The notes below the pieces were generated by a model, which saw only the letters and a program-made list of their open reading frames with translations, did no database searches and was not told the origin of the DNA. 32,000 bases of DNA from Geobacter sulfurreducens PCA (GTDB lineage: Bacteria; Desulfobacterota; Desulfuromonadia; Geobacterales; Geobacteraceae). Both the position numbers and the translations under genes were made by a program. The stretch is from NCBI RefSeq assembly GCF_000007985.2, contig NC_002939.5, forward strand, positions 2,520,001-2,552,000, read 5' to 3'. This document shows positions 11,061 through 30,265 of the stretch, one piece after another. Every line of letters begins with the position of its first letter. Position 1 is the stretch's first letter.

Positions 11061-11947
11061 ACCACGCGGTCCCGTCCTGACCTTTTAGCCCGATACAAGG
11101 CATCATCGGCGGCAGCCAGCAGTTCGTCCAGACCGGCGGTGCCGTCGCACGCGGCAACACCGATGCTTACGGTAACTGACACCGGCTTAGCCCTGGAGGT
11201 GAATTTTGTCGAAGCTATGGCCGCCCGGAGCCGCTCATAGAGATGATTGCAATCATCTCCCGTGCCCGGAGCTACCACGAGGAATTCTTCTCCGCCCAGC
11301 CGACCCAGCAGGTCATAGTCCCTGAGCAGCCCCCCCAGCACTCCGACGCAGCCGCACAGCACCTCGTCTCCGGTCTGATGACCGTAACGGTCGTTTACCC
11401 GCTTGAAGTGATCGATATCCAGGATGCCGATGCTCAAACTTCCCCCATCCCGCTTGACCCGGGACAGCTCTTTTTCCAGGTGGTCAATAATCGCGCGCCG
11501 GTTCATGACGCCGGTCAATGGATCGTGGGTGGCCTGGTGATTCAGGGCCTCCTGGGTCTCCTGCAGTCTCGAATGCAGCTCGACGGTGCGGCGGCCCACC
11601 TGGATCCGGGCGCGCAGTTCTCCGAGACTGAACGGTTTGCCCACGTAATCGTCGGCGCCGGCATCGAGCCCGCGGATTACGTCGTCAGTACCGTTTTTGG
11701 CCGTGAGCAGGAGAATGTAGGGCAGATGTTCAGCTGACCGGGCACGGACCTGCCGGATCACCTCCACCCCGTCCATGACGGGCATAACCCAATCCAGTAC
11801 GGCCAGCTTGGGGGCATCGCTTTTTTGCAGTTCTTCCCAGGCCTGCGCTCCATCAATCGCCTCCACCACGTCGTAGCCCCACCGTTTCATCAGTCCGGTC
11901 AGCATAGTGCGCGAGGTTACATCATCATCGGCGATGAGAATTCGCAT
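11042..11947 (-). CDS. Response regulator with REC and GGDEF (diguanylate cyclase) domains
   Basis: REC domain (RILIADDD..., LAVLDWVMPVMDG), then a GGDEF domain with an intact GGEEF motif. I prefer the ATG at 11947 because AAGGAG lies 8 nt upstream. The ORF track starts at the GTG at 11956, which overlaps the kinase stop. Confidence 0.88.
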   Translation of the reverse strand: MRILIADDDVTSRTMLTGLMKRWGYDVVEAIDGAQAWEELQKSDAPKLAVLDWVMPVMDGVEVIRQVRARSAEHLPYILLLTAKNGTDDVIRGLDAGADDYVGKPFSLGELRARIQVGRRTVELHSRLQETQEALNHQATHDPLTGVMNRRAIIDHLEKELSRVKRDGGSLSIGILDIDHFKRVNDRYGHQTGDEVLCGCVGVLGGLLRDYDLLGRLGGEEFLVVAPGTGDDCNHLYERLRAAIASTKFTSRAKPVSVTVSIGVAACDGTAGLDELLAAADDALYRAKRSGRDRVVQAGSP

Positions 11948-11952
11948 AGGCG

Positions 11953-14900: not shown

Positions 14901-15030
14901 TCGCATCCCGCTCCTGAATAAAACTCCAGGCCATCGAAAAGCCCACGGCAAGGGTCCACGCGACACCCGTAACCACTGCATAGCGTTTTGGCTTTGAAGA
15001 CTGTCTCAACTCAGTACCTGCACCGTTCAC
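11953..15030 (-). CDS. Hybrid sensor histidine kinase: Tll0287/DUF3365-like CXXCH haem-c sensor, TM, 2 PAS, HisKA, HATPase, REC, HPt
   Basis: N-terminal TM helix, then a periplasmic domain with CLRCH (nt 14473-14487). A second TM follows, then two PAS-like repeats, the H-box [18 protein letters not shown]-boxes, REC (ILLVEDN...[11 protein letters not shown]) and HPt ([12 protein letters not shown]). GTG start with a GGAGA SD. Confidence 0.9.
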
Positions 15031-15099
15031 AACTTATCTCCGCTAAGCTGTTTGCCGCCGCGCCCGCCAACGGCAACAGAAAATGACTCACTCCAACGG

Positions 15100-15549
15100 T
15101 TACAGCCGCTCAGGCTCAGATGACGTATCCCCTTCCCTCTCCGAACCGCCCGACCTTCGCCGTATCAGGTAATAGCCGATGCTCAGCGCCAGAATTATTG
15201 CCGCTATCCCCAAAAGGACCTGGCCCGAAAGGTCCTTCACATCGAGAATGATGACCTTTCGGGCAATTGCAATGATTGCAACCGCCATCACGATCCTTGC
15301 GTGGTCGGTTGATTGGGCCAGATAGGTTTTCGCGATGGTTTCCAGCAACTCAATTCCGATCAGAACCAGCATGAACAGACCGAAAATCTCCAGCAATTCA
15401 TCAATTTCCAGGAGAAGAAACGGCGGCGAAACGATATCCTTCACGATGATCCAGGCCAGCTCAAGCGTTGCAAGAAACAGAACCAGTGCCATCATGACTA
15501 CCAGTGAGAAAATAATCATTTTTTCAAATTTTTTGATCTGCGTGATCAT
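15100..15549 (-). CDS. PsiE-family (phosphate-starvation-inducible E-like) membrane protein
   Basis: 149 aa with four hydrophobic helices. PsiE-like blocks LLEIFGLFMLVLIGIELLETI and VAIIAIARKVIILD. SD GAGGGGGA. Confidence 0.6.
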   Translation of the reverse strand: MITQIKKFEKMIIFSLVVMMALVLFLATLELAWIIVKDIVSPPFLLLEIDELLEIFGLFMLVLIGIELLETIAKTYLAQSTDHARIVMAVAIIAIARKVIILDVKDLSGQVLLGIAAIILALSIGYYLIRRRSGGSEREGDTSSEPERL

Positions 15550-15594
15550 GAATCCCCCTCAGCACGGCAATTGCTCAACTCAAATCCACAATCA

Positions 15595-16470
15595 TTATGA
15601 TGGGTTGCCCATCCCGTCATTAAATATGCGAATATCGCGCCGGGGAAATGGTATTTCAATGCCGTTTTCTGTGAACGCCTTGTAAATGCCGTAATTGAGG
15701 GCGCTCGTAAGAAGTCCGCGCCGATGGATGAGAGTAGTGCTCCAGGCCCTCAACTCGAAGTTGAGTCCGCTGTCCCCGAATTCCATGAGACGCACGGCAG
15801 GTGGCGGCTTTTCCAGCACGTCGGCATTGTCGGCAGCCACCTCCAGGAGTAGCCGCTCCACCAGATGAACATCGCTGCCGTAGGCAACGCTCACGGGAAT
15901 CCGGAACCGGACCTTCCGCTCGTTGTGGCTCCAGTTCACCACATTCTCGGTGATGAACTTGGAATTGGGCACAATGATGGTGATGTTGTCGTTAGTCACC
16001 ACGGTCGTGCTCCTGCCGCCGATATGAACCACATCCCCCTCAACGGTGCCCACCACGATCCGGTCCCCCACCTTGATCGGACGCTCGAAGAGGATGATGA
16101 TGCCGCTGACGAAGTTATTGACGATGTTCTGGAGGCCGAAACCGACGCCGATGCCGACGGCGCCGGCCAGAACGTTGAGTGCGGTAAGGTCGATGCCGGC
16201 GGTCTGGAGGATGACGATGAAACCGATGGCTATGATGGTGTAGCGAATAATGGAGCCGGTGGCCTGGCGGGCGCCCAGCTCCATCCTGGTCCGGGTGAGG
16301 AACTGCTCAACGATCCAGGTCCGCAGCTTGCCCGAGAGGTAGAAGAGAAGCGCCACCAGCACCACCAGTTGAATGATGGCCCAGAGGGTCACGGGGGCGC
16401 CGCCGAGCTTCAGAATGGGAATTTCAAGGTATTGCCTGACTGTTCCAATCAGTTCCATCAAGGTTTCCAT
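15595..16470 (-). CDS. Small-conductance mechanosensitive channel (MscS family)
   Basis: Three TM helices, then the MscS signature GFGLQNIVNNFVSGIIILFERPIKVGDRI and a beta-domain. Confidence 0.9.
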   Translation of the reverse strand: METLMELIGTVRQYLEIPILKLGGAPVTLWAIIQLVVLVALLFYLSGKLRTWIVEQFLTRTRMELGARQATGSIIRYTIIAIGFIVILQTAGIDLTALNVLAGAVGIGVGFGLQNIVNNFVSGIIILFERPIKVGDRIVVGTVEGDVVHIGGRSTTVVTNDNITIIVPNSKFITENVVNWSHNERKVRFRIPVSVAYGSDVHLVERLLLEVAADNADVLEKPPPAVRLMEFGDSGLNFELRAWSTTLIHRRGLLTSALNYGIYKAFTENGIEIPFPRRDIRIFNDGMGNPS

Positions 16471-16485: not shown

Positions 16486-18252
16486 TCAAAAAGGCCAGAA
16501 GCGCGGAATGAATATCGTCGCCAGAACCCAAAAAAGAATATTGAGTGGCGTTCCCACTCGCAGAAAATCAGCATACCTGAACTGGCCTGGCCCATAGATC
16601 AGGGTGTTGGTCTGGTAGCCGACCGGGGTCATGAAACTGGCTGAAGCGGCAAAGGTGATGGCCATGAGGAAGGGGCGGGAATCAACCCCGTATGCCTCGG
16701 CTGAAGCGATGGCGATGGGAGCCAGCATGGCTGCCGTCGCATTATTGGACATCATCTCGGTCAGCAGCGACGTCGCGAGGTAGAAGGCCGAGACCAGGGC
16801 CACGGGCCCCCATGTCCCCACCGTCTCAACCAGGTAGCCCGCCAGGAGACGTGCTGCGCCGCTCTTTTCCAGGGCAGTCCCCAGGGTGAGAACTCCGGCA
16901 AGGAGAAAGATCACCTGCCAGTTGATGGCGCTGTAGGCCTCCTCGCGGGTCAGACAACGGGTCAGAACCATCAGGATGCAACCAACGATGGCTCCGGCCA
17001 CGATGGGAACCAGCCCCGTTGCCGCGGCAGCCACCACTGCAGCCACGATGGCAACAGCAGTGACCATCCTGCTTTTGCGGAAGACGGGGAGCTCAACCTG
17101 GGAGACCAGAACAAAGGTCTTGTCCTCCCGGAGATGGTCCAGGTGGTGCTGCTCCACCTCGAAGAGAAGAACGTCGCCCGCCCGCAGCTGCATCATTTCC
17201 AGGTCTTCCCTCATGAGCCGCCCCCTGTGGCGGACCGCAAGCGCCGTAAGGCCGTACCGGGAACGGAACCGTGCCTGTTTGAGACTTCGGCCGTCCAGGG
17301 TGGACCCCGGTGCCACCACCGCCTCCACCAGGACCGCCTCCTCTCCCGGCGCACGGCCCGAATCCTGTCGCAGGGCGATGCCGCGCCGCTCCTTGAGTTT
17401 CCTGAAATTCTCCAGATCGCAGCGGACCTTCAGATGATCGCCGGCCTGGAGCACGATCCGGTCGCCGGGCTCATCGAGGAGGGTCCCGTCCCTGAATACC
17501 TCCACGCTCCGGATCGAAATATCTTGCAGCAGCGGCGAATCGGCCAGCACCGATCCCACGGAGCGGGCCTCCGGCTCCAGCACGATCTCGGTCAGGTAAT
17601 CGCTGATGCCGAAGAGCCTTCGCAGGTCCTCCTCCCCCTTGCGCTCGGGAATGAGCCTCACGCCCACCAGCAGCATGTAGACACTCCCCGCTGCGAAAAA
17701 AATGAGACCAAGACCGCTCATCTCGAACATGCCGAAAGGTTCGAGGCCATGCCGGCCGGCAATGGAGGATACGAGAATATTGGTGGAGGTACCGATGAGG
17801 GTGCAAACCCCGCCGAACATGGAGGCAAAGGAGAGGGGCATGAGGAGCCTGCCGGCCGATACCCCCGTATCCCGAGCCACTCCCAGGGCAATGGGAAGAA
17901 AGATGGCCACTGCAGCCGTGTTGTTGATAAAGGCGGAGAGTACCCCCACCGCCAGCATCATAACTACCAGGACCAGCCAGAAACTCAACGCTCCCAGCCG
18001 GGCCAGGGTGATTCCCAGCAGGTTCACCGCGCCGGTCCTGAAAAGCCCCGCCGAAAGTATGAACATTGCCCCAACGGTGACTGTGGCCGGGTTGCTGAAA
18101 CCTCCGATGGCTTCTTCCGGGGCAATGATACCGGAAAGAAGGAGCGTTGCCATGAGAATGAGGGCGACGATGTCAACCGGAATCCGCTCCGTGGCAAAGA
18201 GGATTACCGCAGAGAGGACCAGGCCCAGCACGAGCAGAATCTCAATGGTCAC
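16486..18252 (-). CDS. SLC13/DASS-type (ArsB/NhaD superfamily) permease with two central TrkA-C domains
   Basis: 588 aa. Two polytopic membrane halves flank a soluble insert with TrkA-C-like repeats ([19 protein letters not shown]..., [17 protein letters not shown]...). The GTG start overlaps the upstream stop (GTGA). Confidence 0.85.
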
Positions 18253-19337
18253 TTACACACTCCAGAAAAGGACAGGGCCTTTTGTCGGTTCCCGCACAAG
18301 ACACCGGCTGAGTTCTTCCTGAGAAGATAGTGGGATACGAACCATTCATTGCCTTCGCTGTACCCGAAGAGCTCAGAGCAGGCCATGAAAAATACCCGCC
18401 AGCGCTGGAACCAGACCGGAGCGTCGCCTTCGTAAACATCCCAGAAAATCTCCAGAATCTTCCGGCGCTCGGTATCCATCCGTTCAAGCCAGCCGTCACA
18501 GGTCCGCTGGTAATGACGGCCGCCCACTCGCCAGTGATCCTCAACCGCCAGGTGGTCATTGAAATAGAAGAGGAGATGGTCAGACGGCATGATGCCGCCG
18601 GTGAAGAAGTATCGGCCCATCCAGTCGTCTTCCCCATCGGTCTGGAACAGGTATGCCAGGGTTCGGTGGCAAAAAATGTGAACGAAAAGCCGCCCGTCGT
18701 CCTTCAGCCAGCCTGCGATGCGGCGCAGAAGCTCGGCGTAATTGCGCATGTGTTCGAACATCTCCACCGATACGACCCGGTCGAAGGTCTTCTCAATGGT
18801 GAAGTCGTTCATGTCGGCAGTGATGACCCTCACATTACCGAAGCCCCGCCCTCGACAGGCCCCTTGGATGAACTGCCGCTGGGGCGCAGAGTTGGAAACC
18901 GCCGTGATGCGGGCATCAGGATAGTGCTCGGCCATCCAGAGGGTCAGGGAACCCCACCCGCACCCAAGTTCAAGGATATCCATCCCATCGGCCAGACCGG
19001 CCCTTTGACAGGTGAGCCGCAACATTGCTTCCTCGGCGGTGGCTAAGTCATCGACGCCGGGGGGATAGAGGCAACAGCTGTACTTGCGGCGAGGCCCCAG
19101 AACGAGGGAGAAAAAGTCGGGAGGCAGCTCGTAGTGCTGCTTATTTGCGGCGCCCGTTTCCATTGCCAAGGGACTGTGGCTCAGTTGTTCGAAAAACTCA
19201 CGTTGGCGCGCTCGATCCGCCTCTGTGTCGCCGCAGCTCTCTTCCTGCAACCGCTTCATCAGAAGCCGCCGGATGCCGCTACGGATGACGGCGTCGGGAA
19301 GCATCCCGTGCTCCATGAGTGACACCATTCTGTTCAT
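18249..19337 (-). CDS. Cyclopropane-fatty-acyl-phospholipid-synthase (CMAS) family SAM-dependent methyltransferase
   Basis: [24 protein letters not shown] (CMAS hallmark block), SAM motif [12 protein letters not shown], and [13 protein letters not shown] overlap with the DUF1499 gene. Confidence 0.85.
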
Positions 19338-19789
19338 GGTGCTGACCCCGCCGGGGAAAAGGCACGGCGGATATCCTCCATCCTGCCGCGGTTTTTACCC
19401 AAGTCTGAATAGCCCAGACGCGAGGCCGAACGGACGTGGATGACCCGCCGCCCCCGATCCAGGAGGAACTCTCCGTCATCCACGAAGAAGGTGGTGCGCA
19501 ACTCCACCCGCAGGTATTCCCCCGTCTGTTCGATGATGGTCGTGTCGCCCCGTGCTTCCAGGACCAGCATCAGGTGCGCGAAGGCCGCATCGGGATCCCC
19601 CGTGAACGCCAGGGGGGCGATCCGGTGCCGATCGTCGGACTCCTGGCTGGATACGCAGTTGGGGGATGAGGGGCAGGGGGACAGCCTCCCATCCCTCACC
19701 CCCAGGCTGGCGGGACGCTCACCGGCGCAGGCAGGCAAGAGCCCCGCCAGTATTCCTGCCAACATCGCCCTCACTGTCAGAAATTTCAT
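19334..19789 (-). CDS. DUF1499-family protein with signal peptide (possible lipoprotein)
   Basis: Signal MKFLTVRAMLAGILAGLLPAC, the DUF1499 hallmark SPCPSSPNCVSSQ, and the C-terminal RSASRLGYSDLGKNR block. Confidence 0.75.
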   Translation of the reverse strand: MKFLTVRAMLAGILAGLLPACAGERPASLGVRDGRLSPCPSSPNCVSSQESDDRHRIAPLAFTGDPDAAFAHLMLVLEARGDTTIIEQTGEYLRVELRTTFFVDDGEFLLDRGRRVIHVRSASRLGYSDLGKNRGRMEDIRRAFSPAGSAP

Positions 19790-19911
19790 TGATCATCCCC
19801 ATCGCGTGTTCATTCATGGGCCTCAGCGTGGCCGGCACCGTGGCCCCGGCTGCCACATCCATGGTCATATCCACCGGGCCGCTATTCTGGCACGGCATCC
19901 CAGCTTACCCT

Positions 19912-19928
19912 GATGGAACAATTCCATC
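19912..19928. promoter_or_regulatory. Perfect 7-3-7 palindrome GATGGAA-CAA-TTCCATC in the divergent intergenic region (candidate operator)
   Basis: Read directly from the sequence. It lies between the divergent starts at 19789 (-) and 20042 (+), about 60 nt upstream of the putative -35 at 19990. Confidence 0.3.
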
Positions 19929-19989
19929 TCCAGAACTATAGCAGACCGTCGGCGCTCCGCACGGCCACGGCAACTTTCCGCGTCCTCGC

Positions 19990-20017
19990 TTGCGTATACA
20001 CCGGCGACTGCTAGAAT
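19990..20017 (+). promoter_or_regulatory. Putative sigma70-type promoter (TTGCGT-16 nt-TAGAAT) for the twelve-gene operon
   Basis: TTGCGT at 19990-19995, a 16-nt spacer and TAGAAT at 20012-20017. AGGAG SD at 20031 and ATG at 20042. Confidence 0.3.
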
Positions 20018-20041
20018 CCAGAGTGATCACAGGAGCCGCCC

Positions 20042-20608
20042 ATGAAAGCACCCATCGTTATCCTCTGCCTTCTCTGCTTCGCCCTGACACCGCCAGCCGC
20101 TTCCCACGGCCGGAGCGTCCAGGGGGTGACCTTTCTCGAACGGATTCAGGCTGGTGATGCTACCCTCACCCTCCACAATGCCGCCTTGCTTCGCTACCTC
20201 AAGGTCATCAAGGCTTACGTGGCGGCCCTCTATCTTCCGGAAGGGGTTCCTCCCCAGCGGGTGCTGACCGATGTACCGAAGCGGTTGGAGCTCAGCTACC
20301 TGGTGTCAATCAAGGGAAGCGATTTCGGTAAGGGGGCCGAACCGGTTCTCAGGCGCAACCTTGCCGCCGAGGAGCTGGCGCGGTTGCGCAGCCGCATTGA
20401 CCGCATCAACGCCGCCTACCGGGACGTGAAGCCCGGTGACCGGTACGCCCTCACCTACCTCCCTGGCCGGGGGACGGAGCTCACCCTGAACGGCACGCCG
20501 CTCATCACCATCGAAGGGGCCGATTTCGCGGCAGCCTACTTCGGCATCTGGCTGGGCCGAAGGCCCATCGACGACACGCTGAAGAATGATCTCCTGGGGA
20601 GCGGCTGA
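20042..20608 (+). CDS. Secreted chalcone-isomerase-like (Chalcone_3-type) family protein
   Basis: Signal peptide MKAPIVILCLLCFALTPPAAS. Family-typical blocks VIKAYVAALYLPEG and FGIWLGRRPIDDTLKNDLLG. Confidence 0.75.
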   Translation: MKAPIVILCLLCFALTPPAASHGRSVQGVTFLERIQAGDATLTLHNAALLRYLKVIKAYVAALYLPEGVPPQRVLTDVPKRLELSYLVSIKGSDFGKGAEPVLRRNLAAEELARLRSRIDRINAAYRDVKPGDRYALTYLPGRGTELTLNGTPLITIEGADFAAAYFGIWLGRRPIDDTLKNDLLGSG

Positions 20609-20609
20609 G

Positions 20610-20957
20610 ATGAAGGCCCTCCTGACCACCATATGCCTTATTGTGCTGGCCGTCATGCTCTTCGTGACCGTCACCGCCTCCATCCACGAGGACGTGGTCA
20701 CCGCCGCCCGCCTCCTCTTACCGGATCCCTGGTTCCGCGCAACCCTGGCCGATGCCTACTTCGGATTTCTCTTTTTCTGGCTCTGGGTGGCTTGGCGGGA
20801 GCGAAGCGCGGGGCGGGCGGGGCTCTGGTTCATCCTTATCATGACCCTGGGAAATTTCGCCATGGCCGGCTATCTGCTCTGGCACCTGCGCCGATGGGAA
20901 CCGGCGGACGGTATCGGGAAGCTCCTCATGGGAGAGAGGCATGGAAACGGCCGTTGA
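20610..20957 (+). CDS. Small multi-pass membrane protein (tentatively DUF1475-like)
   Basis: 115 aa with three to four hydrophobic helices. The ATG at 20610 lies 1 nt after the upstream stop. The family assignment is from memory of the usual neighbourhood only. Confidence 0.55.
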   Translation: MKALLTTICLIVLAVMLFVTVTASIHEDVVTAARLLLPDPWFRATLADAYFGFLFFWLWVAWRERSAGRAGLWFILIMTLGNFAMAGYLLWHLRRWEPADGIGKLLMGERHGNGR

Positions 20958-21339
20958 GGTGCGGGCCCCGGCTGCGGCCGCCTGGGAACTGCTTACCGAT
21001 ACTCGGCGCTGGAGCGAGTGGGGGCCATCGGTCTCCGGGGTTGAGTGCCCGGAGCGCTTCATCGGCCCCGGCACGATCGGATGGGTACGGACGGTCGTCG
21101 GCCTGCGGCTCCCCTTCCGGATCACCGAGTTCGAGCCGGGGCGCCGCTGGTGCTGGTCGGTTGCCGGCATCCCCGCCACTGGCCACCGGGTGGAGCCACT
21201 GGGGCAGGAGCGGTGCCGAGTGGTCTTCGAGGTCCCGATGCCGGCTGCCCCCTACCTGGCAGTCTGCCGGGTGGCGGCCCTGAGAATTCGCTCCATCCTG
21301 GAGGGTGGAGGGGGGAAGGAAGGAGGGGCAGCATTGTGA
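20941..21339 (+). CDS. SRPBCC (START/polyketide-cyclase-like) ligand-binding protein
   Basis: 132 aa with a typical SRPBCC N-terminus, VEVRAPAAAAWELLTDTRRWSEWGP. It overlaps the upstream gene by 17 nt. Confidence 0.7.
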   Translation: METAVEVRAPAAAAWELLTDTRRWSEWGPSVSGVECPERFIGPGTIGWVRTVVGLRLPFRITEFEPGRRWCWSVAGIPATGHRVEPLGQERCRVVFEVPMPAAPYLAVCRVAALRIRSILEGGGGKEGGAAL

Positions 21340-22106
21340 CGGCGATTCTCCTGACTACCGCCGGATTCGTGCTCGCCTCTATGACCGGCTGGTTCGTTGC
21401 TTCCCGGCTGAAGGGGCGCAACGACATCGCCGACGTGGCTTGGGGGCTCGGGTTCATCCTGGCGGCGGCGGTCTCCCTCGTGGCCGGCGGCCACTACGCC
21501 CCCCGGGGCCTCCTGGTCTCCCTCCTGGTGCTGGTCTGGGGGGTGCGGCTCGCCCTTCACATCCACACCCGCAACCGGGGCAAGGGGGAGGATCCCCGTT
21601 ACCGGCAGTGGCGGGAGGAGTGGGGGCGCTGGTTCGTGCTCCGCTCGTTCCTCCAGGTATTCATGCTCCAGGGGGTGCTCCTGGTACTGGTGGCGGTGCC
21701 GGTGATCTTCGTCAACGGAGCGCCGCCGACACCGCTCGGATGGCTGGACAGCCTGGGCTTTTTCATCTGGCTCACCGGGTTCTTGTTCGAGGCGGTGGGG
21801 GACCGGCAACTGCTGCACTTCATCCGCAATCCGGAAAACAAGGGGCAGCTCATGACCGGCGGACTCTGGCGCTACACCCGCCACCCCAACTACTTCGGCG
21901 AGGTGACCCTCTGGTGGGGGATATGGCTCATAGCCCTTGCGGTTCCCGGCGGGTGGTGGACCGTCATCGGCCCCCTGGCCATCACGGTGCTGATCCTCAA
22001 GGTTTCAGGCATCCCGATGCTGGAAAAACACTACGAGGGACGACCCGACTTCGAGGAGTACAAACGCCGCACGAGCGCCTTCTTCCCCCTGCCGCCCCGG
22101 GGGTGA
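21336..22106 (+). CDS. DUF1295 / steroid-5-alpha-reductase-like membrane protein
   Basis: The GTG at 21336 overlaps the SRPBCC stop (GTGA), and AAGGAGG lies upstream. Hallmark blocks NDIADVAWGLGF, GEDPRY, GLWRYTRHPNYFGE and SGIPMLE. The 21045 start in the ORF track is an out-of-context extension. Confidence 0.85.
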   Translation: MTAILLTTAGFVLASMTGWFVASRLKGRNDIADVAWGLGFILAAAVSLVAGGHYAPRGLLVSLLVLVWGVRLALHIHTRNRGKGEDPRYRQWREEWGRWFVLRSFLQVFMLQGVLLVLVAVPVIFVNGAPPTPLGWLDSLGFFIWLTGFLFEAVGDRQLLHFIRNPENKGQLMTGGLWRYTRHPNYFGEVTLWWGIWLIALAVPGGWWTVIGPLAITVLILKVSGIPMLEKHYEGRPDFEEYKRRTSAFFPLPPRG

Positions 22107-22135
22107 TAAATGTTCCACCGAGAGGAGAAAGCTCC

Positions 22136-22507
22136 ATGAACCTTTACGAACTGTTCCAGCAACCGGGCCTGGGGGTCATGGCCACCGCCGCCCCTGACGG
22201 CAGCGTCAACACCGCCGTCTATGCCCGCCCCCACCTCATCGACGAAACCACCCTGGTCTGGGGGATGACCGACGGCCGCACCGTCCGCAACATCGCCCGG
22301 AATCCCCACGCCTCTTTTCTGTTCAAGGCGGGGACGCCGGGTTTCAGTGGGGTGCGGCTGGCCCTGGAACTGATCAGGACCGAAGAAGAGGGTGAGATGC
22401 TGGCCCACATCAAGGAGAACGCCGAAACCCTCGTCGGTCCGGGGACCGGCAATGCGGTCACCCATGCCGCCTGGTTCAGGGTGGTGGAAGTCAGACCATT
22501 GATATAA
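22136..22507 (+). CDS. Pyridoxamine-5'-phosphate-oxidase-like (split-barrel flavin-binding) family protein
   Basis: 123 aa. GAGGAGA SD lies before the ATG at 22136. PNPOx-like blocks are present (GVMATAAPDGSVNTAVY, RTVRNIARNPHASF). Confidence 0.7.
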   Translation: MNLYELFQQPGLGVMATAAPDGSVNTAVYARPHLIDETTLVWGMTDGRTVRNIARNPHASFLFKAGTPGFSGVRLALELIRTEEEGEMLAHIKENAETLVGPGTGNAVTHAAWFRVVEVRPLI

Positions 22508-22528
22508 ATAAAAATCGGAGGTACGTAC

Positions 22529-25297
<2,769 letters not shown>

Positions 25298-25309
25298 GGG
25301 GAGGACTTC

Positions 25310-25867
25310 ATGAAAACCCTGTTCATACTGGCAGTCGCCACGCTTCTTGCGGCCGGATTCGCCTGTCGCGCCGCCATGGCCGCATCGGCATCCCCCCCGC
25401 TCCTGACGGTTGAATATGTCGATCTGAACCGCTACGTGGGCACATGGTACGAGATCGCCCGCTACCCCAACAGCTTCCAGAAGGGGTGCCTGGGGAGCAA
25501 CGCCCACTACGCGCTGCGGCAGGACGGCGATATCGACGTGGTGAACAGCTGCCGCGATGTGGAGGATGGGGACATCCGCCGGGCAAAGGGGCGGGCGTGG
25601 GTGGTTGACAAAGCCTCCAACGCACGGCTCAAGGTCTCCTTTTTCTGGCCCTTCCGGGGGGACTACTGGATCATCGAATTGGGAAAGGATTATGAATACG
25701 CCGTGGTGGGCACCCCGAACCGTAAATACCTGTGGGTTCTCAGCCGCACGCCGGTTATGGACGACGACGTGTATGCTGCCATTATGGAACGGGTTCGGCG
25801 ACAGGGGTTCGATCCCGAACGAGTCATCCGCGAAACCAACACCACGCGAAAGAATGGTGCATCATGA
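25310..25867 (+). CDS. blc: Bacterial lipocalin (Blc-like)
   Basis: Signal peptide, then the lipocalin hallmark VDLNRYVGTWYEIARYPNSFQKGC, and YWIIELGKDYEYAVVGTPNRKYLWVLSR. Confidence 0.9.
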   Translation: MKTLFILAVATLLAAGFACRAAMAASASPPLLTVEYVDLNRYVGTWYEIARYPNSFQKGCLGSNAHYALRQDGDIDVVNSCRDVEDGDIRRAKGRAWVVDKASNARLKVSFFWPFRGDYWIIELGKDYEYAVVGTPNRKYLWVLSRTPVMDDDVYAAIMERVRRQGFDPERVIRETNTTRKNGAS

Positions 25868-27108
25868 ACATCGCCATTATCGGTGGCGGCATTGCGGGGC
25901 TGGCAACGGCGCATCTGCTCTGCGACGATCATCGGGTGACCCTCTTCGAGGCCAACGACTACCTGGGGGGGCACACCAACACGGTGGACGTCTCCCTGGA
26001 CGGCACCACCCTTGCCGTGGACACCGGCTTCATCGTCTTCAACGAACGGACCTATCCCAACTTCATCAGGCTCCTGGAACGGCTCAACGTCGCGTCCCGA
26101 CCGAGCGTCATGAGCTTTTCGGTCACCAGTGAACGGAATGGACTGGAGTACTGTGCCACAAACCTGGACACGCTCTTCGCCCAGCGCCGCAACTTCCTGA
26201 ACCGTCCTTTCTGGCGGATGCTGCGGGAGATTGTCCGCTTCAATCGGGAAGCACGGGAGCTCTACGACTCCCACGAAATGACCCTGACCCTGGGGGATTA
26301 CTTGAAAAACCGCGGATACTCGGTCACCTTCGTGGAGAACTTTCTGGTTCCCATGGGGGCGGCCATCTGGTCGGCAGACCCCAAGCGTTTTGCAATGTTT
26401 CCCGCCGCGGCCTTTGTCCGATTTTTCACCAATCACGGCATCCTGAACGTGGTCGACCAGCCCCGCTGGCGCGTCGTTGCCGGAGGCTCCCGGGAATATG
26501 TGGCACCGCTGGCCCGCCCGTTTCGGGACCGGGTCCGGCTCTCCACGCCTGTGGACCGGGTACGCCGCTTTCCTGACCGGGTGGCGGTGACGACCCGGGG
26601 AGGAGAGACCGAGTACTTTGACCAGGTGGTCCTGGCCTGCCACAGCGACCAGGCGCTGGCCATGCTGACTGACCCCTCCGATGCGGAGCGGGAACTCCTT
26701 TCCGCCATCCCGTACCAGGAAAACGATACGGTGCTCCACACCGACAGCCGTTTGCTCCCTGGCCTTCCCAAGGCCCGGGCCAGCTGGAACTGCCGCATCC
26801 CCCGGCATGAGCGGGACGGGGTCTTTGTTACCTACTGGATGAACAGATTGCAGTCCCTGGCAACATCGACGGACTTCTGCGTCACCCTCAACGGGACAGA
26901 GGCCATTGCTCCGGAGCGGATCATCCGCCGGATCACCTACCACCACCCGGTCTATTCTCCGGCCGCTTTCGAGGCCCAGAAACGCCGCGACGAGATCAGC
27001 GGAACCAACCGCACCTGGTATTGCGGCGCGTACTGGGGGTACGGCTTCCACGAGGATGGGCTCAACAGCGCCCTGGCAGTCTGCCGCCGATTCGGGAGGG
27101 GCCTCTGA
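25864..27108 (+). CDS. NAD/FAD-binding amine-oxidase-like oxidoreductase (UfaD-like class)
   Basis: ATGA overlap with blc. Rossmann motif IAIIGGGIAGLATAHLL...LFEANDYLGGHTNTV. C-terminal YCGAYWGYGFHEDG block. Confidence 0.85.
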   Translation: MNIAIIGGGIAGLATAHLLCDDHRVTLFEANDYLGGHTNTVDVSLDGTTLAVDTGFIVFNERTYPNFIRLLERLNVASRPSVMSFSVTSERNGLEYCATNLDTLFAQRRNFLNRPFWRMLREIVRFNREARELYDSHEMTLTLGDYLKNRGYSVTFVENFLVPMGAAIWSADPKRFAMFPAAAFVRFFTNHGILNVVDQPRWRVVAGGSREYVAPLARPFRDRVRLSTPVDRVRRFPDRVAVTTRGGETEYFDQVVLACHSDQALAMLTDPSDAERELLSAIPYQENDTVLHTDSRLLPGLPKARASWNCRIPRHERDGVFVTYWMNRLQSLATSTDFCVTLNGTEAIAPERIIRRITYHHPVYSPAAFEAQKRRDEISGTNRTWYCGAYWGYGFHEDGLNSALAVCRRFGRGL

Positions 27109-27959
27109 TGGGCACGACTGAGATGGGGGCCTGTCCGCCGTGGGATACGGCCTGCCTCAAGGCGCTGGAGATGGCCCCGGCTGCCCGGAGCGCACTCTAC
27201 GACGGCACGGTGAAACATCGAAGAACTACCCCGGTTGTCAACGAGTTCCGCTACAGCCTCTTCATGGTCTACCTGGATCTGGCGGAACTGGAGCTGGTCT
27301 TCGCCAACCGCCTGTTCTGGTCCGTGGAAGGCCACACCTGGGCCAGCTTCCGGCGCGCCGACCACCTGCGCCGGGAAGGCCCCCTTGACACGGCGGTACG
27401 TGACCTGGCCGAGGAGCAGCTCGGTTTCCGCCCCCCCGGCCCCATCGGCCTTCTGACCCATCTGCGCTACCTGGGATACTGCTTCAACCCCATCAGCATC
27501 TACTACTGCTTCGCCGCCGACGGCCAGCGGCTCGACGCCATAGTCGCCGAAGTCCACAACACCCCCTGGGGTGAGGAATACGTGCGGGCACTGGATACCC
27601 GAAGCGCCAAGCGGGAGGGGGAATGGTACCTGTTCGAGCTGGAAAAGGAGTTCCACGTCTCACCCTTCATGCCCATGGATATCCGCTACACCTGGCGCTT
27701 CACCGCTCCCGGCGAAACCCTGGCGGTTGAAATGGAGAACGAGCGGCAGGGAGAAATCGTCTTCTCGGCACGGCTTGACCTTGAACGGCGCCCCCTGACG
27801 GGGAAGAACCTGGCACGGTCCCTGGCACGCTGGCCCTGGATGACGGCGCGGGTCATAACCGCCATTTACTGGCAGGCCCTGCGCATCAGGCGAAAGGGGG
27901 TTCCGTTCTGCCCCCATCCGGAAAAACTCACCATCACGAAAGGGGCCTACCACCCATGA
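27108..27959 (+). CDS. DUF1365-family protein
   Basis: TGATG overlap with the upstream gene. Hallmark LYDGTVKHRRTTPVVNEFRYSLFMVYLDLAELE, then HLRYLGYCFNPISIYYC. Confidence 0.8.
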   Translation: MGTTEMGACPPWDTACLKALEMAPAARSALYDGTVKHRRTTPVVNEFRYSLFMVYLDLAELELVFANRLFWSVEGHTWASFRRADHLRREGPLDTAVRDLAEEQLGFRPPGPIGLLTHLRYLGYCFNPISIYYCFAADGQRLDAIVAEVHNTPWGEEYVRALDTRSAKREGEWYLFELEKEFHVSPFMPMDIRYTWRFTAPGETLAVEMENERQGEIVFSARLDLERRPLTGKNLARSLARWPWMTARVITAIYWQALRIRRKGVPFCPHPEKLTITKGAYHP

Positions 27960-29221
27960 GGACTACCGAGCAGACCTGCAGTGGCTATCCCGACGCCGTA
28001 ATCCGGCCGGCCGGCCCCATGGAGCGCCTGGCCCGGTCCCTGTTGCAGAAAAGCCTTGGAGCCATCTCCAGCGGCCACCTGACCCTGCTGGACAGCGGCC
28101 AGCGCATGGAATTCGGCGATTCCCGGTCCGACCTCTCGGCCCTGGTGCGGGTCCACACCCCTTCCTTTTACCGCCGGACCGCCATCGGAGGAACCATCGG
28201 CGCCGCCGAGTCGTACATGGACGGCGAATGGGACTGTGATGACCTGCCGGCCCTGGTGCGGATCATGGTGCGCAACCAGGATGCCCAGGAGCGCCTGGAA
28301 GGAGCGACGGCGAGGCTGATCGCCCCGTTCCGGCGGCTCCTCCACCGGCTGAACGACAACACGCGCCGGGGGAGCCGGCGCAACATCGCCGCCCACTACG
28401 ACCTGGGAAACGACTTCTACCGACTCTTTCTGGATCCCACCATGGCCTACTCCTGCGGCATCTTCGAGCGGAACGACAGCACCATGGAGGAGGCCTCCGT
28501 CGCCAAGTTTGACCGGATCTGCCGCGCGCTCCACCTTCGCCCGGACATGGAGCTTCTTGAAATCGGCACCGGCTGGGGAGGCTTTGCCATCCATGCGGCC
28601 GAGCACTACGGCTGCCGGGTGACGACCACCACCATCTCGCGCCGGCAGTTCTCCCTGGCGGCCGAACGGATCCGGGAGGCCGGCCTGGACGATCGCATCA
28701 CCCTGCTCCAGCGGGACTACCGGGACCTGACCGGAGAGTTCGACCGGCTCGTCTCCATCGAGATGATCGAGGCGGTGGGGCACCGCCACCTCCCCGCCTT
28801 CTTTGCAGTCTGTTGCCGGCGGCTCAAGGCCGACGGCATGGGACTCATCCAGGCCATCACTGTCCCCGACCGGATCTATGACCGCTACCTCAAAACCCCG
28901 GACTTCATCAACCGCTACATTTTCCCCGGTGGGTGCTGTCCGTCGCCGGGGGCCATGGCCCGGGCCGTGGCAGCGGCCACCGACCTGCGCCTGGTCCACC
29001 GGGAGGACCTGACTCCCCACTATGTCCGAACCCTCCAGGAGTGGCGCAGGACCTTCCACAAGCGGCTCGACGCCGTACGGGCCCTGGGCTGCGACGACCG
29101 GTTCATCCGCATGTGGGACTATTATCTCGCCTACTGCGAAGGGGGATTCGCGGAGCGGTTCACCGGCGTGGAACAGGTGGTCTACGCCCGGCCCGGCTGC
29201 ATGGTGGAACCGGGGGTATAG
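27956..29221 (+). CDS. Cyclopropane-fatty-acyl-phospholipid-synthase family protein (UfaO/Cfa-like class)
   Basis: ATGA overlap. NIAAHYDLGNDFYRLFLDPTMAYSCGIF, SAM motif LLEIGTGWGGFA, VSIEMIEAVG and IFPGGCCPS blocks. Confidence 0.9.
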   Translation: MRTTEQTCSGYPDAVIRPAGPMERLARSLLQKSLGAISSGHLTLLDSGQRMEFGDSRSDLSALVRVHTPSFYRRTAIGGTIGAAESYMDGEWDCDDLPALVRIMVRNQDAQERLEGATARLIAPFRRLLHRLNDNTRRGSRRNIAAHYDLGNDFYRLFLDPTMAYSCGIFERNDSTMEEASVAKFDRICRALHLRPDMELLEIGTGWGGFAIHAAEHYGCRVTTTTISRRQFSLAAERIREAGLDDRITLLQRDYRDLTGEFDRLVSIEMIEAVGHRHLPAFFAVCCRRLKADGMGLIQAITVPDRIYDRYLKTPDFINRYIFPGGCCPSPGAMARAVAAATDLRLVHREDLTPHYVRTLQEWRRTFHKRLDAVRALGCDDRFIRMWDYYLAYCEGGFAERFTGVEQVVYARPGCMVEPGV

Positions 29222-29737
29222 GTGGGAAGAAACCTTCTCAATGTGGCCCTCTTCCAGGGGGCCTGGTTCGCGGCGGTGCTGGGGGCAGCCGGGGGGCGGC
29301 ACTGGCTCGGGCCGGCGGCGGTGGCCCTGGTGGTCGCCATCCACCTGGCCCTGACCGATAATCGGCCGGGAGAGACGAAACTCATTCTGACCGCGGGAGT
29401 CCTCGGGTTTTTCTTCGATACCGCCCTCGTTGCCGGCGGGGTCTTTCTACCCTTGGCTTATCTCCTTCCCCGCCCCTTCAGCCCCCTGTGGATGGTGGCA
29501 CTTTGGTTCAACTTCGCCACCACCCTGAACGTCTCCCTGGCATGGCTGCGGAGCAGGTACCTCCTGGCCGCCCTGTTCGGGGCAGTGGGAGGCCCCCTGG
29601 CCTACTACAGCGGTGCCCGGCTCGGGGCCACCGAGGCGCTGCCGACCACCGGGGCCATGCTGATCCTGGCTGCCGGCTGGGGAGTCATGACTCCGCTGCT
29701 GGTCGGGGCGGCAAACTATTTCCGGAGGCAGCCATGA
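29222..29737 (+). CDS. DUF2878-like multi-pass membrane protein
   Basis: The GTG lies immediately after the upstream TAG. 171 aa with 4-5 hydrophobic helices and N-terminal NVALFQGAWFAAVLG. The family call rests on the motif and the usual neighbourhood. Confidence 0.65.
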   Translation: MGRNLLNVALFQGAWFAAVLGAAGGRHWLGPAAVALVVAIHLALTDNRPGETKLILTAGVLGFFFDTALVAGGVFLPLAYLLPRPFSPLWMVALWFNFATTLNVSLAWLRSRYLLAALFGAVGGPLAYYSGARLGATEALPTTGAMLILAAGWGVMTPLLVGAANYFRRQP

Positions 29738-30150
29738 CTCACGGTCTCCTTGTCTTTCTCGCGCTCCTCCCCTTCTTCCTCCTGCTGGACTACCTCTGGC
29801 TCGGCCGCCTCATGCGGGGGTTCTACCTGCGGGAACTGGGGGACCTGGCCCGGAGTGAAGGAGACGCCATCAAACCGCGCCTCCTGGCTGCGGCCGGGGT
29901 CTACCTGGCCCTGCCGGGAGGGATCGTCCTCTTCGCCCTCCCCCGGGTTGACCCGGCCCGTCCGCTGGTCTCGGCCCTCGGCTGGGGATTTCTTTACGGT
30001 CTCGTGGTCTACGGCGTCTATGATCTCACCAACCGCGCCACCCTCAGCGAGTGGCCCCTCAGGATGGCGACCGTCGACATCTGCTGGGGCGGCTTACTCT
30101 GCGCCGTCAGCACCCTGATCGCAGCACTCCTTGACCCCCTTCTCCCCTGA
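29734..30150 (+). CDS. DUF2177-like membrane protein
   Basis: ATGA overlap. 138 aa with four helices, and LLLDYLWLG...YGVYDLTN blocks. Confidence 0.65.
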   Translation: MTHGLLVFLALLPFFLLLDYLWLGRLMRGFYLRELGDLARSEGDAIKPRLLAAAGVYLALPGGIVLFALPRVDPARPLVSALGWGFLYGLVVYGVYDLTNRATLSEWPLRMATVDICWGGLLCAVSTLIAALLDPLLP

Positions 30151-30201: not shown

Positions 30202-30230
30202 TTGAGGTCATTACCCCGATGAACTATAGT
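30202..30230 (+). promoter_or_regulatory. Putative sigma70-type promoter (TTGAGG-17 nt-TATAGT)
   Basis: TTGAGG at 30202-30207, a 17-nt spacer and TATAGT at 30225-30230. GAGGAG SD lies before the ATG at 30266. Confidence 0.25.
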
Positions 30231-30265
30231 CAGCAAACCAACATAGGCAATTCAGAGGAGCACCC

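Follow-up and report, generated by a model that had tools for sequence, protein, structure and literature searches.

A putative furan-fatty-acid gene cluster with conserved lipid-handling accessory genes in Geobacter sulfurreducens

We analysed a 32,000-nt stretch of the Geobacter sulfurreducens PCA chromosome (contig NC_002939.5, positions 2,520,001 to 2,552,000; hereafter the window, with positions counted from its first letter) and, within it, a unit of twelve plus-strand genes at 20042–30150, which we take to be GSU2318–2329. By analogy with characterized bacterial systems, the locus probably encodes, in G. sulfurreducens, the furan-fatty-acid (FuFA) pathway known from other bacteria, accompanied by conserved lipid-handling accessory genes. 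The enzymology of this pathway has been shown in other organisms, and for Geobacter we infer it. The original prediction, made from the DNA letters, had related the unit to the furan-fatty-acid system of Rhodobacter and had assigned the DNA to an anaerobe-type deltaproteobacterium. The core gene families and the gene order of Rhodopseudomonas palustris supported the former, and exact protein look-ups bore out the latter by identifying the host as G. sulfurreducens.

Core genes of the proposed furan-fatty-acid pathway

The characterized enzymes are UfaD, an FAD enzyme (RSP1091 in Rhodobacter sphaeroides, RPA2571 in R. palustris), UfaO, which contains DUF1365 (RSP1090/RPA2570), and UfaM, a CMAS-family methylase (RSP2144/RPA2569) (Lemke et al. 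2020, PMC7380195). RPA2571-2570-2569 are adjacent in R. palustris and both necessary and sufficient for synthesis of the monomethyl furan fatty acid, and a second methylase, FufM (RPA0924), gives the dimethyl furan fatty acid (PMC7380195). UfaO requires O2, and the intermediates build up in R. sphaeroides mutants (PMC7380195). In the window, the families and their order at 25864–29221 (Amino_oxidase, DUF1365, CMAS) were identical to those of RPA2571-2569; UniProt entries for characterized proteins are Q3IYV7 (UfaD), Q3IYV8 (UfaO), Q3J4I7 (UfaM), and Q6NBA4 (FufM). The original prediction had described UfaO as a protein resembling cyclopropane-fatty-acid (CFA) synthase and DUF1365 as a domain with no assigned role. 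Both statements were mistaken: UfaO (RSP1090) is a DUF1365 protein (PMC7380195), and DUF1365 therefore has an assigned role. The refutation test proposed there had looked for the UfaO-type protein in the wrong gene, as 27956–29221 is UfaM-type and the UfaO-type gene lies at 27108–27959.

The first gene of the triad (25864–27108, plus strand) encodes a predicted UfaD-type FAD-dependent fatty-acyl desaturase with an amine-oxidase fold (Pfam Amino_oxidase, 91 bits; NAD_binding_8) and a GGGIAG motif, whose best solved relative was LkcE (E 3e-47). It is followed by the UfaO-type DUF1365 gene (27108–27959, plus strand), whose product matched PF07103 over its full length (268 bits, E 1e-79) and by analogy would be the O2-dependent furan-ring former. 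Sequence search found no solved relative of this protein. Its AlphaFold2 (AF2) model (predicted local distance difference test score, pLDDT, 77) is chiefly beta with helices at the C-terminus, and a structure search gave weak similarity (template-modelling score, TM, 0.3–0.5) to nitrobindin-, FABP-, and lipocalin-type barrels, which bind fatty acids or heme. The modelled fold is compatible with an acyl-chain-binding cavity, the similarity being too weak to assign a mechanism.

The third gene (27956–29221, plus strand) encodes a predicted UfaM-type S-adenosylmethionine (SAM)-dependent fatty-acyl methylase of the CMAS family (421 aa; Pfam CMAS, 283 bits). Escherichia coli Cfa was its best solved relative and the Cfa model its best NCBIfam match, with a score of 284 bits against an equivalog cut-off of 400; the same model gave 157 bits for a second CMAS-family methylase of 362 aa encoded next to the unit. 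When 72 DUF1365-linked orthologues of the 421-aa type were aligned with E. coli Cfa to inspect the bicarbonate site, His266 was replaced by Gln and Gly236 by Glu in all 72, while E239, I268, and Y317 were kept; a Salinivibrio orthologue carried the same substitutions, including Gln266. The 362-aa methylase kept His266 but had Phe at Cfa position 268, and neither enzyme combined an above-cut-off score with the complete site (C139, E239, H266, I268, and Y317) of Cfa-type proteins. His266 of Cfa is a bicarbonate ligand required for ring closure, and Gln at this position would fit an enzyme that releases a methyl-olefin in place of a cyclopropane. In Pseudomonas syringae, R. sphaeroides UfaM has its best homologue in the cfa gene beside the DUF1365 gene.

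Organization of the twelve-gene unit

Open reading frame listing and translation of the window reproduced the twelve same-strand genes, with gaps of at most 29 nt and overlapping junctions as originally described. Four junctions are 4-nt start/stop overlaps (GTGA at 21336; ATGA at 25864, 27956, and 29734), one is a 17-nt overlap (20941/20957), one a 1-nt overlap of the ufaD stop with the ufaO start (TGATG at 27108), one a 1-nt gap (20608/20610, position 20609), and one a direct abutment (TAG then GTG at 29221/29222). The remaining gaps surround the PNPOx-like and ATPase genes and measure 29 nt (22106 to 22136, the largest in the unit), 21 nt (22507 to 22529), and 12 nt (25297 to 25310). A Pfam scan, the check proposed with the original prediction, confirmed the domain names given there for all twelve products, in gene order Chalcone_3, DUF1475 (a partial match), Polyketide_cyc2, DUF1295, PNPOx_N, P-type ATPase, Lipocalin_2, Amino_oxidase, DUF1365, CMAS, DUF2878, and DUF2177; the insertion of an ion pump and a flavoprotein into the operon was borne out (P-type ATPase and PNPOx_N).

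Public gene calls on identical DNA agreed with this layout except for alternative starts, which give 164 or 171 aa for the DUF2878 protein and 891, 916, or 922 aa for the ATPase. The DUF1365 gene start at 27108 is preceded by a GGGAGG Shine-Dalgarno sequence, and the N-terminal extension is also present in the nearest relatives; the start could, however, lie 63 nt further downstream, as the majority of homologues are shorter by about 24 aa. The same gene was absent from the original PCA annotation and was added later as AFP20467, and one UniRef name for the G. sulfurreducens protein, 'Chromosome partitioning protein ParA', is a misannotation. A simple scan of the twelve-gene unit for internal promoters and terminators found none above shuffled expectation, and the spacing makes a single transcript plausible. 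The arrangement is beyond chance, because the same genes are syntenic in dozens of other genomes.

A divergent unit with a candidate FufM

A second unit on the minus strand (16486–19789), whose genes overlap by 4 nt, diverges from a common 252-bp intergenic region. Its first gene (19334–19789, minus strand) encodes a DUF1499 protein (PF07386, 118 bits) with a lipoprotein-like signal (LPAC) and an N-terminal hydrophobic segment detected by hydrophobicity scan. The next gene (18249–19337, minus strand) encodes the 362-aa CMAS-family methylase (Pfam CMAS, 144 bits), a candidate FufM on the coclaurine-N-methyltransferase (CNMT)-like branch: its best solved relative was plant CNMT (6gkv), with 258 bits over the full length against 118 bits with E. 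coli Cfa, and it was 33% identical to the 421-aa methylase over 192 aa. Arabidopsis At4g33110 (LIME1/AtFUFM1), annotated as putative coclaurine N-methyltransferase, has been reported to be 37.9% identical to FufM, and CFA2, which singlet oxygen induces in Chlamydomonas, also bears the label CPLD27 'coclaurine N-methyltransferase'. Being CNMT-like itself, as FufM resembles the CNMT-like At4g33110, the 362-aa methylase is probably FufM-like. The last gene (16486–18252, minus strand; 4-nt overlap with the methylase gene) encodes a CitMHS/DASS-type anion transporter with TrkA_C domains (Pfam and NCBIfam).

The R. palustris fufM locus was also sought in metagenome contigs with an 18-mer from published deletion primers; the four matches were attributed to chance, as no cluster gene or other primer site accompanied them. 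To see whether RPA0923 might be a DUF1295 gene, the C-terminal end of RPA0923 and the N-terminal end of RPA0924 were deduced from the primers and compared with a DUF1295–methylase pair from Shinella (described below), without any useful resemblance.

Comparative neighbourhood analysis

A scan with one genome per species yielded 80 loci encoding DUF1365 relatives, onto which sixteen window proteins were mapped by tblastn. Counts were limited to the 47 loci having at least 5 kb of sequence to either side and come from a sample anchored on ufaO: 15 close loci, mostly Geobacterales/Desulfuromonadales, and 32 distant loci from Planctomycetota, Acidobacteriota, Gammaproteobacteria, Desulfobacterales, Nitrospirota, and others. 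For small, fast-evolving proteins the counts are lower bounds.

The Amino_oxidase gene adjoined DUF1365 directly upstream in 47/47 loci (ufaD in 15/15 close and 32/32 distant loci), the 421-aa methylase was found in 15/15 close and 31/32 distant loci, and the FAD–DUF1365–CMAS order was present in 46/47 loci and also on a Salinivibrio plasmid. DUF1295 (14/15 close, 23/32 distant) and the FufM-like 362-aa methylase (5/15 close; 23/32 distant, adjoining DUF1295 in 18) were the commonest companions of the triad across phyla. DUF2878 and DUF2177 (each 14/15 close, 8/32 distant) and the CHI-like gene (10/15 and 3/32) were common in Geobacterales. Lower counts were obtained for DUF1499 (9/15 and 3/32), the DUF1475-like gene (8/15 and 5/32), lipocalin (6/15 and 3/32), PNPOx (5/15 and 2/32), SRPBCC (3/15 and 1/32), and the ATPase (2/15 and 0/32). 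DUF1499 adjoined the second methylase in all five close loci carrying that methylase; DUF1499 and the methylase (18249–19789, minus strand) co-occur with the cluster in many genomes, so the original confinement of the system to 20042–30150 was too narrow. The CitMHS transporter gene lay beside the cluster in 0/47 related loci.

The description of the operon as an expanded Rhodobacter-type system held in that extra genes are present, but mostly not as an expansion peculiar to this genome: the core has widespread companions in the DUF1295, DUF2878, DUF2177, CHI-like, and lipocalin genes, and only the in-operon ATPase is lineage-specific. As for conservation of the ATPase/PNPOx insert, which had been left to such a comparison, the window species and its closest relative (L003, 80% identity) were the only ones with the ATPase in the operon; PNPOx occurred in 7/47 loci. 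The cluster was widespread in lineages regarded as anaerobes, namely Geobacterales, Desulfobacterales, Syntrophobacterales, and Thermodesulfovibrionia.

Further genes recurred in the relatives. A membrane fatty-acid desaturase gene (FA_desaturase) lay directly upstream of ufaD in 21 loci of non-Geobacter phyla (L032–L061 and others), where it might supply unsaturated substrate; the window contains no FA_desaturase gene. Genes for MerR plus B12-binding (LitR/CarH-type) regulators were found at nine related loci, UvdE at nine, SOUL at eight, glutathione peroxidase at six, and DUF523/DUF1722 at four. On plasmid pShin-02 of Shinella sp. HZN7 (L088, 2883–9819), genes for an extracytoplasmic function (ECF) sigma factor, ChrR, DUF1295, and a FufM-like methylase (51% identical to the window 362-aa protein) overlap or nearly abut on the same strand; DUF2177, DUF2147, and DUF1365 follow, and a UfaD-type gene is divergent. 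No 421-aa-type methylase gene was present within 9 kb on this plasmid. The Salinivibrio plasmid (L089) carries the string MerR, phrB, SDR, FAD, DUF1365, CMAS, and DUF2878. Pseudomonas ufaM clusters are light-induced via LitR, and in Chlamydomonas singlet oxygen induces CFA1, CFA2/CPLD27, DUF1365, DUF2177, and DUF1295. Because the relatives' loci and the published regulons show the same associations, the accessory set appears to be an old cross-kingdom companion of the FuFA enzymes.

Accessory genes

The unit opens with a CHI-like protein gene (20042–20608, plus strand; Chalcone_3, PF16036, 144 bits), whose product has a single hydrophobic segment, an N-terminal signal, and is probably an exported lipid or fatty-acid binder. 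It is followed by genes for a small membrane protein with a partial DUF1475 match (20610–20957, plus strand; PF07343, 32 bits; at least two hydrophobic segments) and for an SRPBCC/polyketide-cyclase-like soluble protein with a hydrophobic-ligand-binding fold (20941–21339, plus strand; PF10604, 49 bits). A Blc-type bacterial lipocalin is encoded directly before ufaD (25310–25867, plus strand; PF08212, 169 bits); it has an N-terminal hydrophobic segment read as a signal peptide, a possible lipobox (GFAC), and a below-cut-off match to the Blc model NF007786 (149 bits). The last two genes encode the membrane proteins DUF2878 (29222–29737, plus strand; PF11086, 154 bits) and DUF2177 (29734–30150, plus strand; PF09945, 125 bits). 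A Vibrio cholerae DUF2878 homologue, VC1123, belongs to the regulon of the MerR-type regulator PhrR, DUF2177 is singlet-oxygen-induced in Chlamydomonas, and DUF2177 and DUF1295 are signature neighbours of heliorhodopsins. By hydrophobicity scan, the DUF1475-like, DUF1295, DUF2878, and DUF2177 proteins are integral to the membrane, both methylases, UfaD, UfaO, SRPBCC, and PNPOx are soluble, and the CHI-like protein, lipocalin, and DUF1499 are probably exported.

DUF1295 (21336–22106, plus strand), an integral membrane protein, is the accessory gene with the highest conservation. It matched PF06966 (265 bits) and, more weakly, Steroid_dh, PEMT, and ICMT; its sequence matches to the sterol/steroid reductase superfamily were weak. 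In a Foldseek search, its AF2 model (pLDDT 84) matched sterol reductase 4quv and SRD5A 7c83 and 7bw1 with TM 0.50–0.62 (7c83, 0.62; 4quv, E 1e-3) and the methyltransferase ICMT 5v7p with TM 0.33. Because the modelled fold matches NADPH-dependent membrane C=C reductases better than ICMT, DUF1295 is more likely a reductase than a methylase. Chain G of the Ycf2-FtsHi motor complex from Arabidopsis chloroplasts (8xku_G, TM 0.55) was among the better structural matches of the model, which suggests that this complex has a DUF1295-like membrane subunit.

Between DUF1295 and the lipocalin gene lie genes for a small PNPOx-like split-barrel flavin-binding protein (22136–22507, plus strand; PF01243, 34 bits) and a P2A-type (Ca2+-pump-like) P-type ATPase (22529–25297, plus strand; Pfam N- and C-terminal cation-ATPase domains, E1-E2 core). 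The PNPOx-like gene is directly upstream of ufaD in several Geobacterales loci and adjoins the ATPase gene in two loci besides the window. A role of this flavoprotein as the missing reductant of UfaO was set aside, as ring closure is redox-balanced on paper and the gene occurred in 7/47 loci. The best solved relatives of the ATPase were Listeria LMCA1 and human SPCA1 (E 1e-147). Its score with the PMR1-type model TIGR01522 (624 bits) lies below the equivalog cut-off of 798. A lipid flippase was rejected, the protein being P2A Ca2+-pump-like and scoring only 75 bits with the flippase model. The ATPase is probably a lineage-specific insertion and a passenger of the operon.

Putative promoters and regulation

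The twelve-gene unit appears to start at a sigma-70-like extended -10 promoter, read from the sequence at 19990–20017 (plus strand) as TTGCGT, a 16-nt spacer, and TGc-TAGAAT, and followed by an AGGAG Shine-Dalgarno sequence at 20031–20035 (plus strand). Upstream alignment of six Geobacterales loci revealed TTGC(G/A)-N16-TG(C/T)TA as the only conserved block near the start codon; a consensus scan missed this promoter because its -35 matches only 3/6 positions. The -35 and spacer overlap an imperfect inverted repeat (19986–20007), here TCGCTTGCGTATAC/GTATACACCGGCGA, the sequence of which varies by species (GCGTACCCG...CGGGTACGC in L026 and TTGCGG...CCGCAA in L028); such repeats are a possible operator.

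A second conserved upstream block in the same alignment, ACTATAGCAGA at 19934–19946, corresponds in the window to AACTATAGCAGAC, within which ACTATA-CA-A was invariant in the six related loci. The minus strand reads TGCTATAGT here, a candidate extended -10 of the divergent unit or a regulator site. A similar AACTATAGTCAGC occurs at 30222–30235 directly after the operon; the frequency of the motif in the window was not above chance. A near-palindromic AACTATAG(C/T) motif flanks the twelve-gene unit at 19934–19946 and 30222–30235, and the downstream copy overlaps promoter-like hexamers on both strands before a cytidylate-kinase-like gene. The flanking motifs may represent two -10 elements or the site of a regulator.

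Within the 32-kb window, no sigma/anti-sigma (rpoE-chrR) gene, MerR-family (LitR/PhrR) regulator gene, or photolyase gene was found; in relatives, a sigma-E/ChrR pair or a LitR/PhrR regulator adjoins the cluster. The sigma-E motif TGATCC-N16-CGTA was not present in 19790–20041, and its 29 matches in the window were at chance level (22.6 ± 4.8 expected). The window scan thus agreed with the earlier observation that neither an ECF sigma/ChrR pair nor a photolyase is visible, and the sigma-E motif was missing upstream as well.

Proposed pathway

In the proposed pathway, the 421-aa CMAS enzyme (27956–29221) would use SAM to methylate a cis-monounsaturated phospholipid acyl chain, giving a methyl-branched trans-olefin, the FAD enzyme (25864–27108) would desaturate the methylated chain to a conjugated diene, and the DUF1365 protein (27108–27959) would close the furan ring with O2. 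The CNMT-like methylase (18249–19337) would then probably put a second methyl on the ring, like FufM. According to our own atom balance (diene + O2 gives furan + H2O), ring closure therefore needs no external reductant, in agreement with the finding that no reductant had to be added for the UfaO step (PMC7380195). The furan product would act as a membrane scavenger of radicals and singlet oxygen. DUF1295, DUF2878, DUF2177, and the DUF1475-like protein would be membrane partners. Four proteins, three of them exported (CHI-like, lipocalin, and DUF1499) and one cytosolic (SRPBCC), would be hydrophobic-ligand binders that probably handle modified or oxidized lipids. G. sulfurreducens tolerates and respires O2 (PMC6964889, PMC10582990). 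Because O2 is a substrate, the pathway would operate when this aerotolerant 'anaerobe' comes into contact with O2.

The accessory genes might further form a repair cycle for spent furan lipids, an idea that we consider doubtful. A furan fatty acid that traps singlet oxygen or a peroxyl radical would open to a reactive ene-dione (dioxoene) acyl chain, which DUF1295, with its steroid-5-alpha-reductase fold, would reduce to a saturated 1,4-diketone with NADPH; its fold relatives reduce the C=C of enones. The SRPBCC 'polyketide cyclase' or the CHI-like protein would then re-close the diketone to a furan by Paal-Knorr-type dehydration. Such a cycle would explain why DUF1295 accompanies ufa genes from Geobacter to green algae.

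Several points weigh against assigning the locus to FuFA synthesis. The literature search gave no link of Geobacter to FuFAs and no mention of GSU2318–2329, and the Geobacter literature searched, including oxygen-response papers and a supplement, contained no lipid or expression data on these genes. Orthology to the characterized proteins is argued from protein families, gene order, and what the literature states, FufM is assigned through three indirect steps, and the single transcript is putative. Geobacter membranes are dominated by 16:1, whereas the Rhodobacter substrate is 18:1, so that any product made in Geobacter may be a different one. In R. sphaeroides, FuFA synthesis does not depend on the CFA-like, lipoprotein, and SDR genes of the operon (PMC7380195), and accessory genes therefore do not have to take part in biosynthesis. 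DUF2177 and DUF1295 also lie beside heliorhodopsins in a gene set without DUF1365.

Alternative explanations

Both methylase genes carry the public label 'cyclopropane-fatty-acyl-phospholipid synthase family', and the 421-aa enzyme has E. coli Cfa as its best solved relative and the Cfa model as its best NCBIfam match, as would be expected of an ordinary cyclopropane-fatty-acid locus in which one or both enzymes make cyclopropane rings like E. coli Cfa and the FAD and DUF1365 genes are unrelated. We regard this as quite unlikely: the scores of 284 and 157 bits are far under the Cfa cut-off, the bicarbonate-site His266 is Gln in 72/72 DUF1365-linked orthologues, the 362-aa enzyme is much nearer to CNMT-like enzymes than to Cfa, and the near-invariant FAD–DUF1365–methylase synteny matches a proven FuFA operon. 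That operon, together with the lack of any polyketide synthase, nonribosomal peptide synthetase, or other scaffold-forming gene in the window or related loci, also makes it highly improbable that the genes are a natural-product (polyketide-like) tailoring cluster, in which the oxidase, cyclase-like and CHI-like proteins, and methyltransferases would act on a secreted metabolite exported by the ATPase. The resemblance of the FAD enzyme to the lankacidin cyclase LkcE, its best solved relative, and the Pfam names Polyketide_cyc2 and Chalcone_3 point that way, but the ATPase is of the cation pump type and is not conserved with the cluster, and a proven lipid pathway accounts for the same families.

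Other readings keep the lipid chemistry but omit or bypass the furan. The cluster, or its DUF1295 plus CNMT-like-methylase module, might make saturated mid-chain methyl-branched acids (10-methyl-16:0 type) by methylation and then reduction through a membrane C=C reductase, much as tuberculostearic acid is made in two steps. The modelled DUF1295 fold, that of NADPH-dependent membrane C=C reductases, would suit such a step, as would the adjacency of DUF1295 and the second methylase in 18/32 distant loci; these come from Desulfobacterales, Planctomycetota, Nitrospirota, and similar groups, which contain mid-chain methyl-branched lipids, and 10Me16:0 is cited as a Desulfobacter marker. However, the module lies nearly always beside ufaD–ufaO, and FufM, the sole characterized enzyme tied by the literature to this methylase branch, methylates a furan ring; the known tuberculostearate reductase is from another family, and 10Me16:0 in Geobacter was not found in the literature searched. 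We therefore hold this route to be rather unlikely. It is also unlikely, if slightly less so, that in an anoxic host the pathway halts before ring closure and yields methylated mono- or di-unsaturated chains, or that it serves mainly as a membrane O2 sink with furan lipids not the functional end point. The O2 requirement of UfaO, the spread of the cluster through anaerobe-type lineages (Geobacterales, Desulfobacterales, Syntrophobacterales, and Thermodesulfovibrionia), and the accumulation of intermediates in R. sphaeroides mutants would agree with this, but ufaO is kept beside ufaD in every surveyed locus (the sample being anchored on ufaO), and G. sulfurreducens meets and respires O2. FuFA synthesis thus remains the reading that we favour.

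Comparison with known systems

The closest likeness was to R. palustris CGA009, where RPA2571-2570-2569 encode an FAD desaturase, DUF1365, and a CMAS methylase in identical order (PMC7380195) and a second, divergent CMAS-family methylase (fufM, RPA0924) lies outside the triad. In Geobacter, the second methylase gene adjoins the cluster and is divergently transcribed, nine further genes belong to the tightly coupled unit, and the host, unlike the phototroph R. palustris, is a metal reducer that tolerates oxygen. The R. sphaeroides operon RSP1091–1087 likewise has adjacent ufaD and ufaO genes followed by a CFA-like gene, and its gene for a lipoprotein of about 186 aa (RSP1088) may correspond to the Geobacter lipocalin gene. 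In contrast to the R. sphaeroides sigma-E/ChrR singlet-oxygen core regulon, the Geobacter window lacks rpoE-chrR, an upstream TGATCC-N16-CGTA promoter, a photolyase gene, and an SDR gene; the ufaM gene of R. sphaeroides (RSP2144) lies outside the operon, and the CFA-like gene inside it is dispensable.

The light-induced phrB–SDR–FAD–DUF1365–ufaM clusters of Pseudomonas and Vibrionaceae are under LitR/PhrR control (PMC9758184, PMC12971978; Salinivibrio plasmid L089), and the L089-type cluster shares with Geobacter the string FAD–DUF1365–CMAS(Gln266)–DUF2878. These clusters contain MerR, photolyase, DUF523/DUF1722, NTF2, and SDR genes, none of which is in the Geobacter window, whereas Geobacter adds the upstream CHI-like, DUF1475-like, SRPBCC, DUF1295, PNPOx, and ATPase genes. 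Eukaryotes also have these five or six protein families as a set, with the genes dispersed in the nucleus: CFA1, CFA2/CPLD27, DUF1365, DUF2177, and DUF1295 are co-regulated in a SAK1-dependent manner in Chlamydomonas, and the families are co-localised in Arabidopsis as the lipid-droplet proteins AtUFAMD1, AtUFAO1, and LIME1/AtFUFM1. Plants have UfaM and UfaD fused. With E. coli Cfa (PDB 6BQC), the 421-aa methylase shares the fold, the SAM motif, E239/I268/Y317, and a predicted action on phospholipid acyl chains; it differs in His266 to Gln, Gly236 to Glu, a score below the equivalog cut-off, and the expected product, a methyl-olefin instead of a cyclopropane.

Wider surroundings

Beyond the divergent unit, the minus strand at 11042–16470 encodes a hybrid histidine kinase (Tll0287-like, PAS, HisKA, HATPase, REC, and Hpt; 1025 aa), an overlapping REC-GGDEF response regulator, PsiE, and an MscS-type channel; no link of this region to the cluster was found. 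A trehalose-phosphatase-family gene lies at 621–1409 of the window and adjoins a Na+/H+ antiporter gene. A second gene of this family is located beyond the window end (L001/L002, 17457–20467), beside Glyco_transf_20 (OtsA-like) and Mrp-type antiporter genes.

Significance

The system itself is known already as a furan-fatty-acid/photo-oxidative-stress lipid cluster, and its accessory set is no invention of this genome. Distinctive here are the twelve tightly coupled genes, the neighbouring FufM-like methylase, the lineage-specific Ca2+-pump-type ATPase, the lack of an adjacent stress regulator, and a host living mostly without oxygen or light. The survey ranks DUF1295 and the FufM-like methylase first among the accessory genes, followed by DUF2878 and DUF2177, and the change of His266 to Gln is a one-residue signature by which UfaM-type methylases may be told apart from true cyclopropane synthases. 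If the repair cycle were true, the membrane would hold a catalytic, regenerable scavenger of reactive oxygen. The analysis predicts an O2-consuming route to antioxidant furan lipids in G. sulfurreducens, a much-studied electroactive 'anaerobe' that is by now considered aerotolerant, and in many members of the Desulfobacterales, Syntrophobacterales, and Geobacterales; this, if true, would be a membrane-level oxygen defence so far unconsidered in these organisms.

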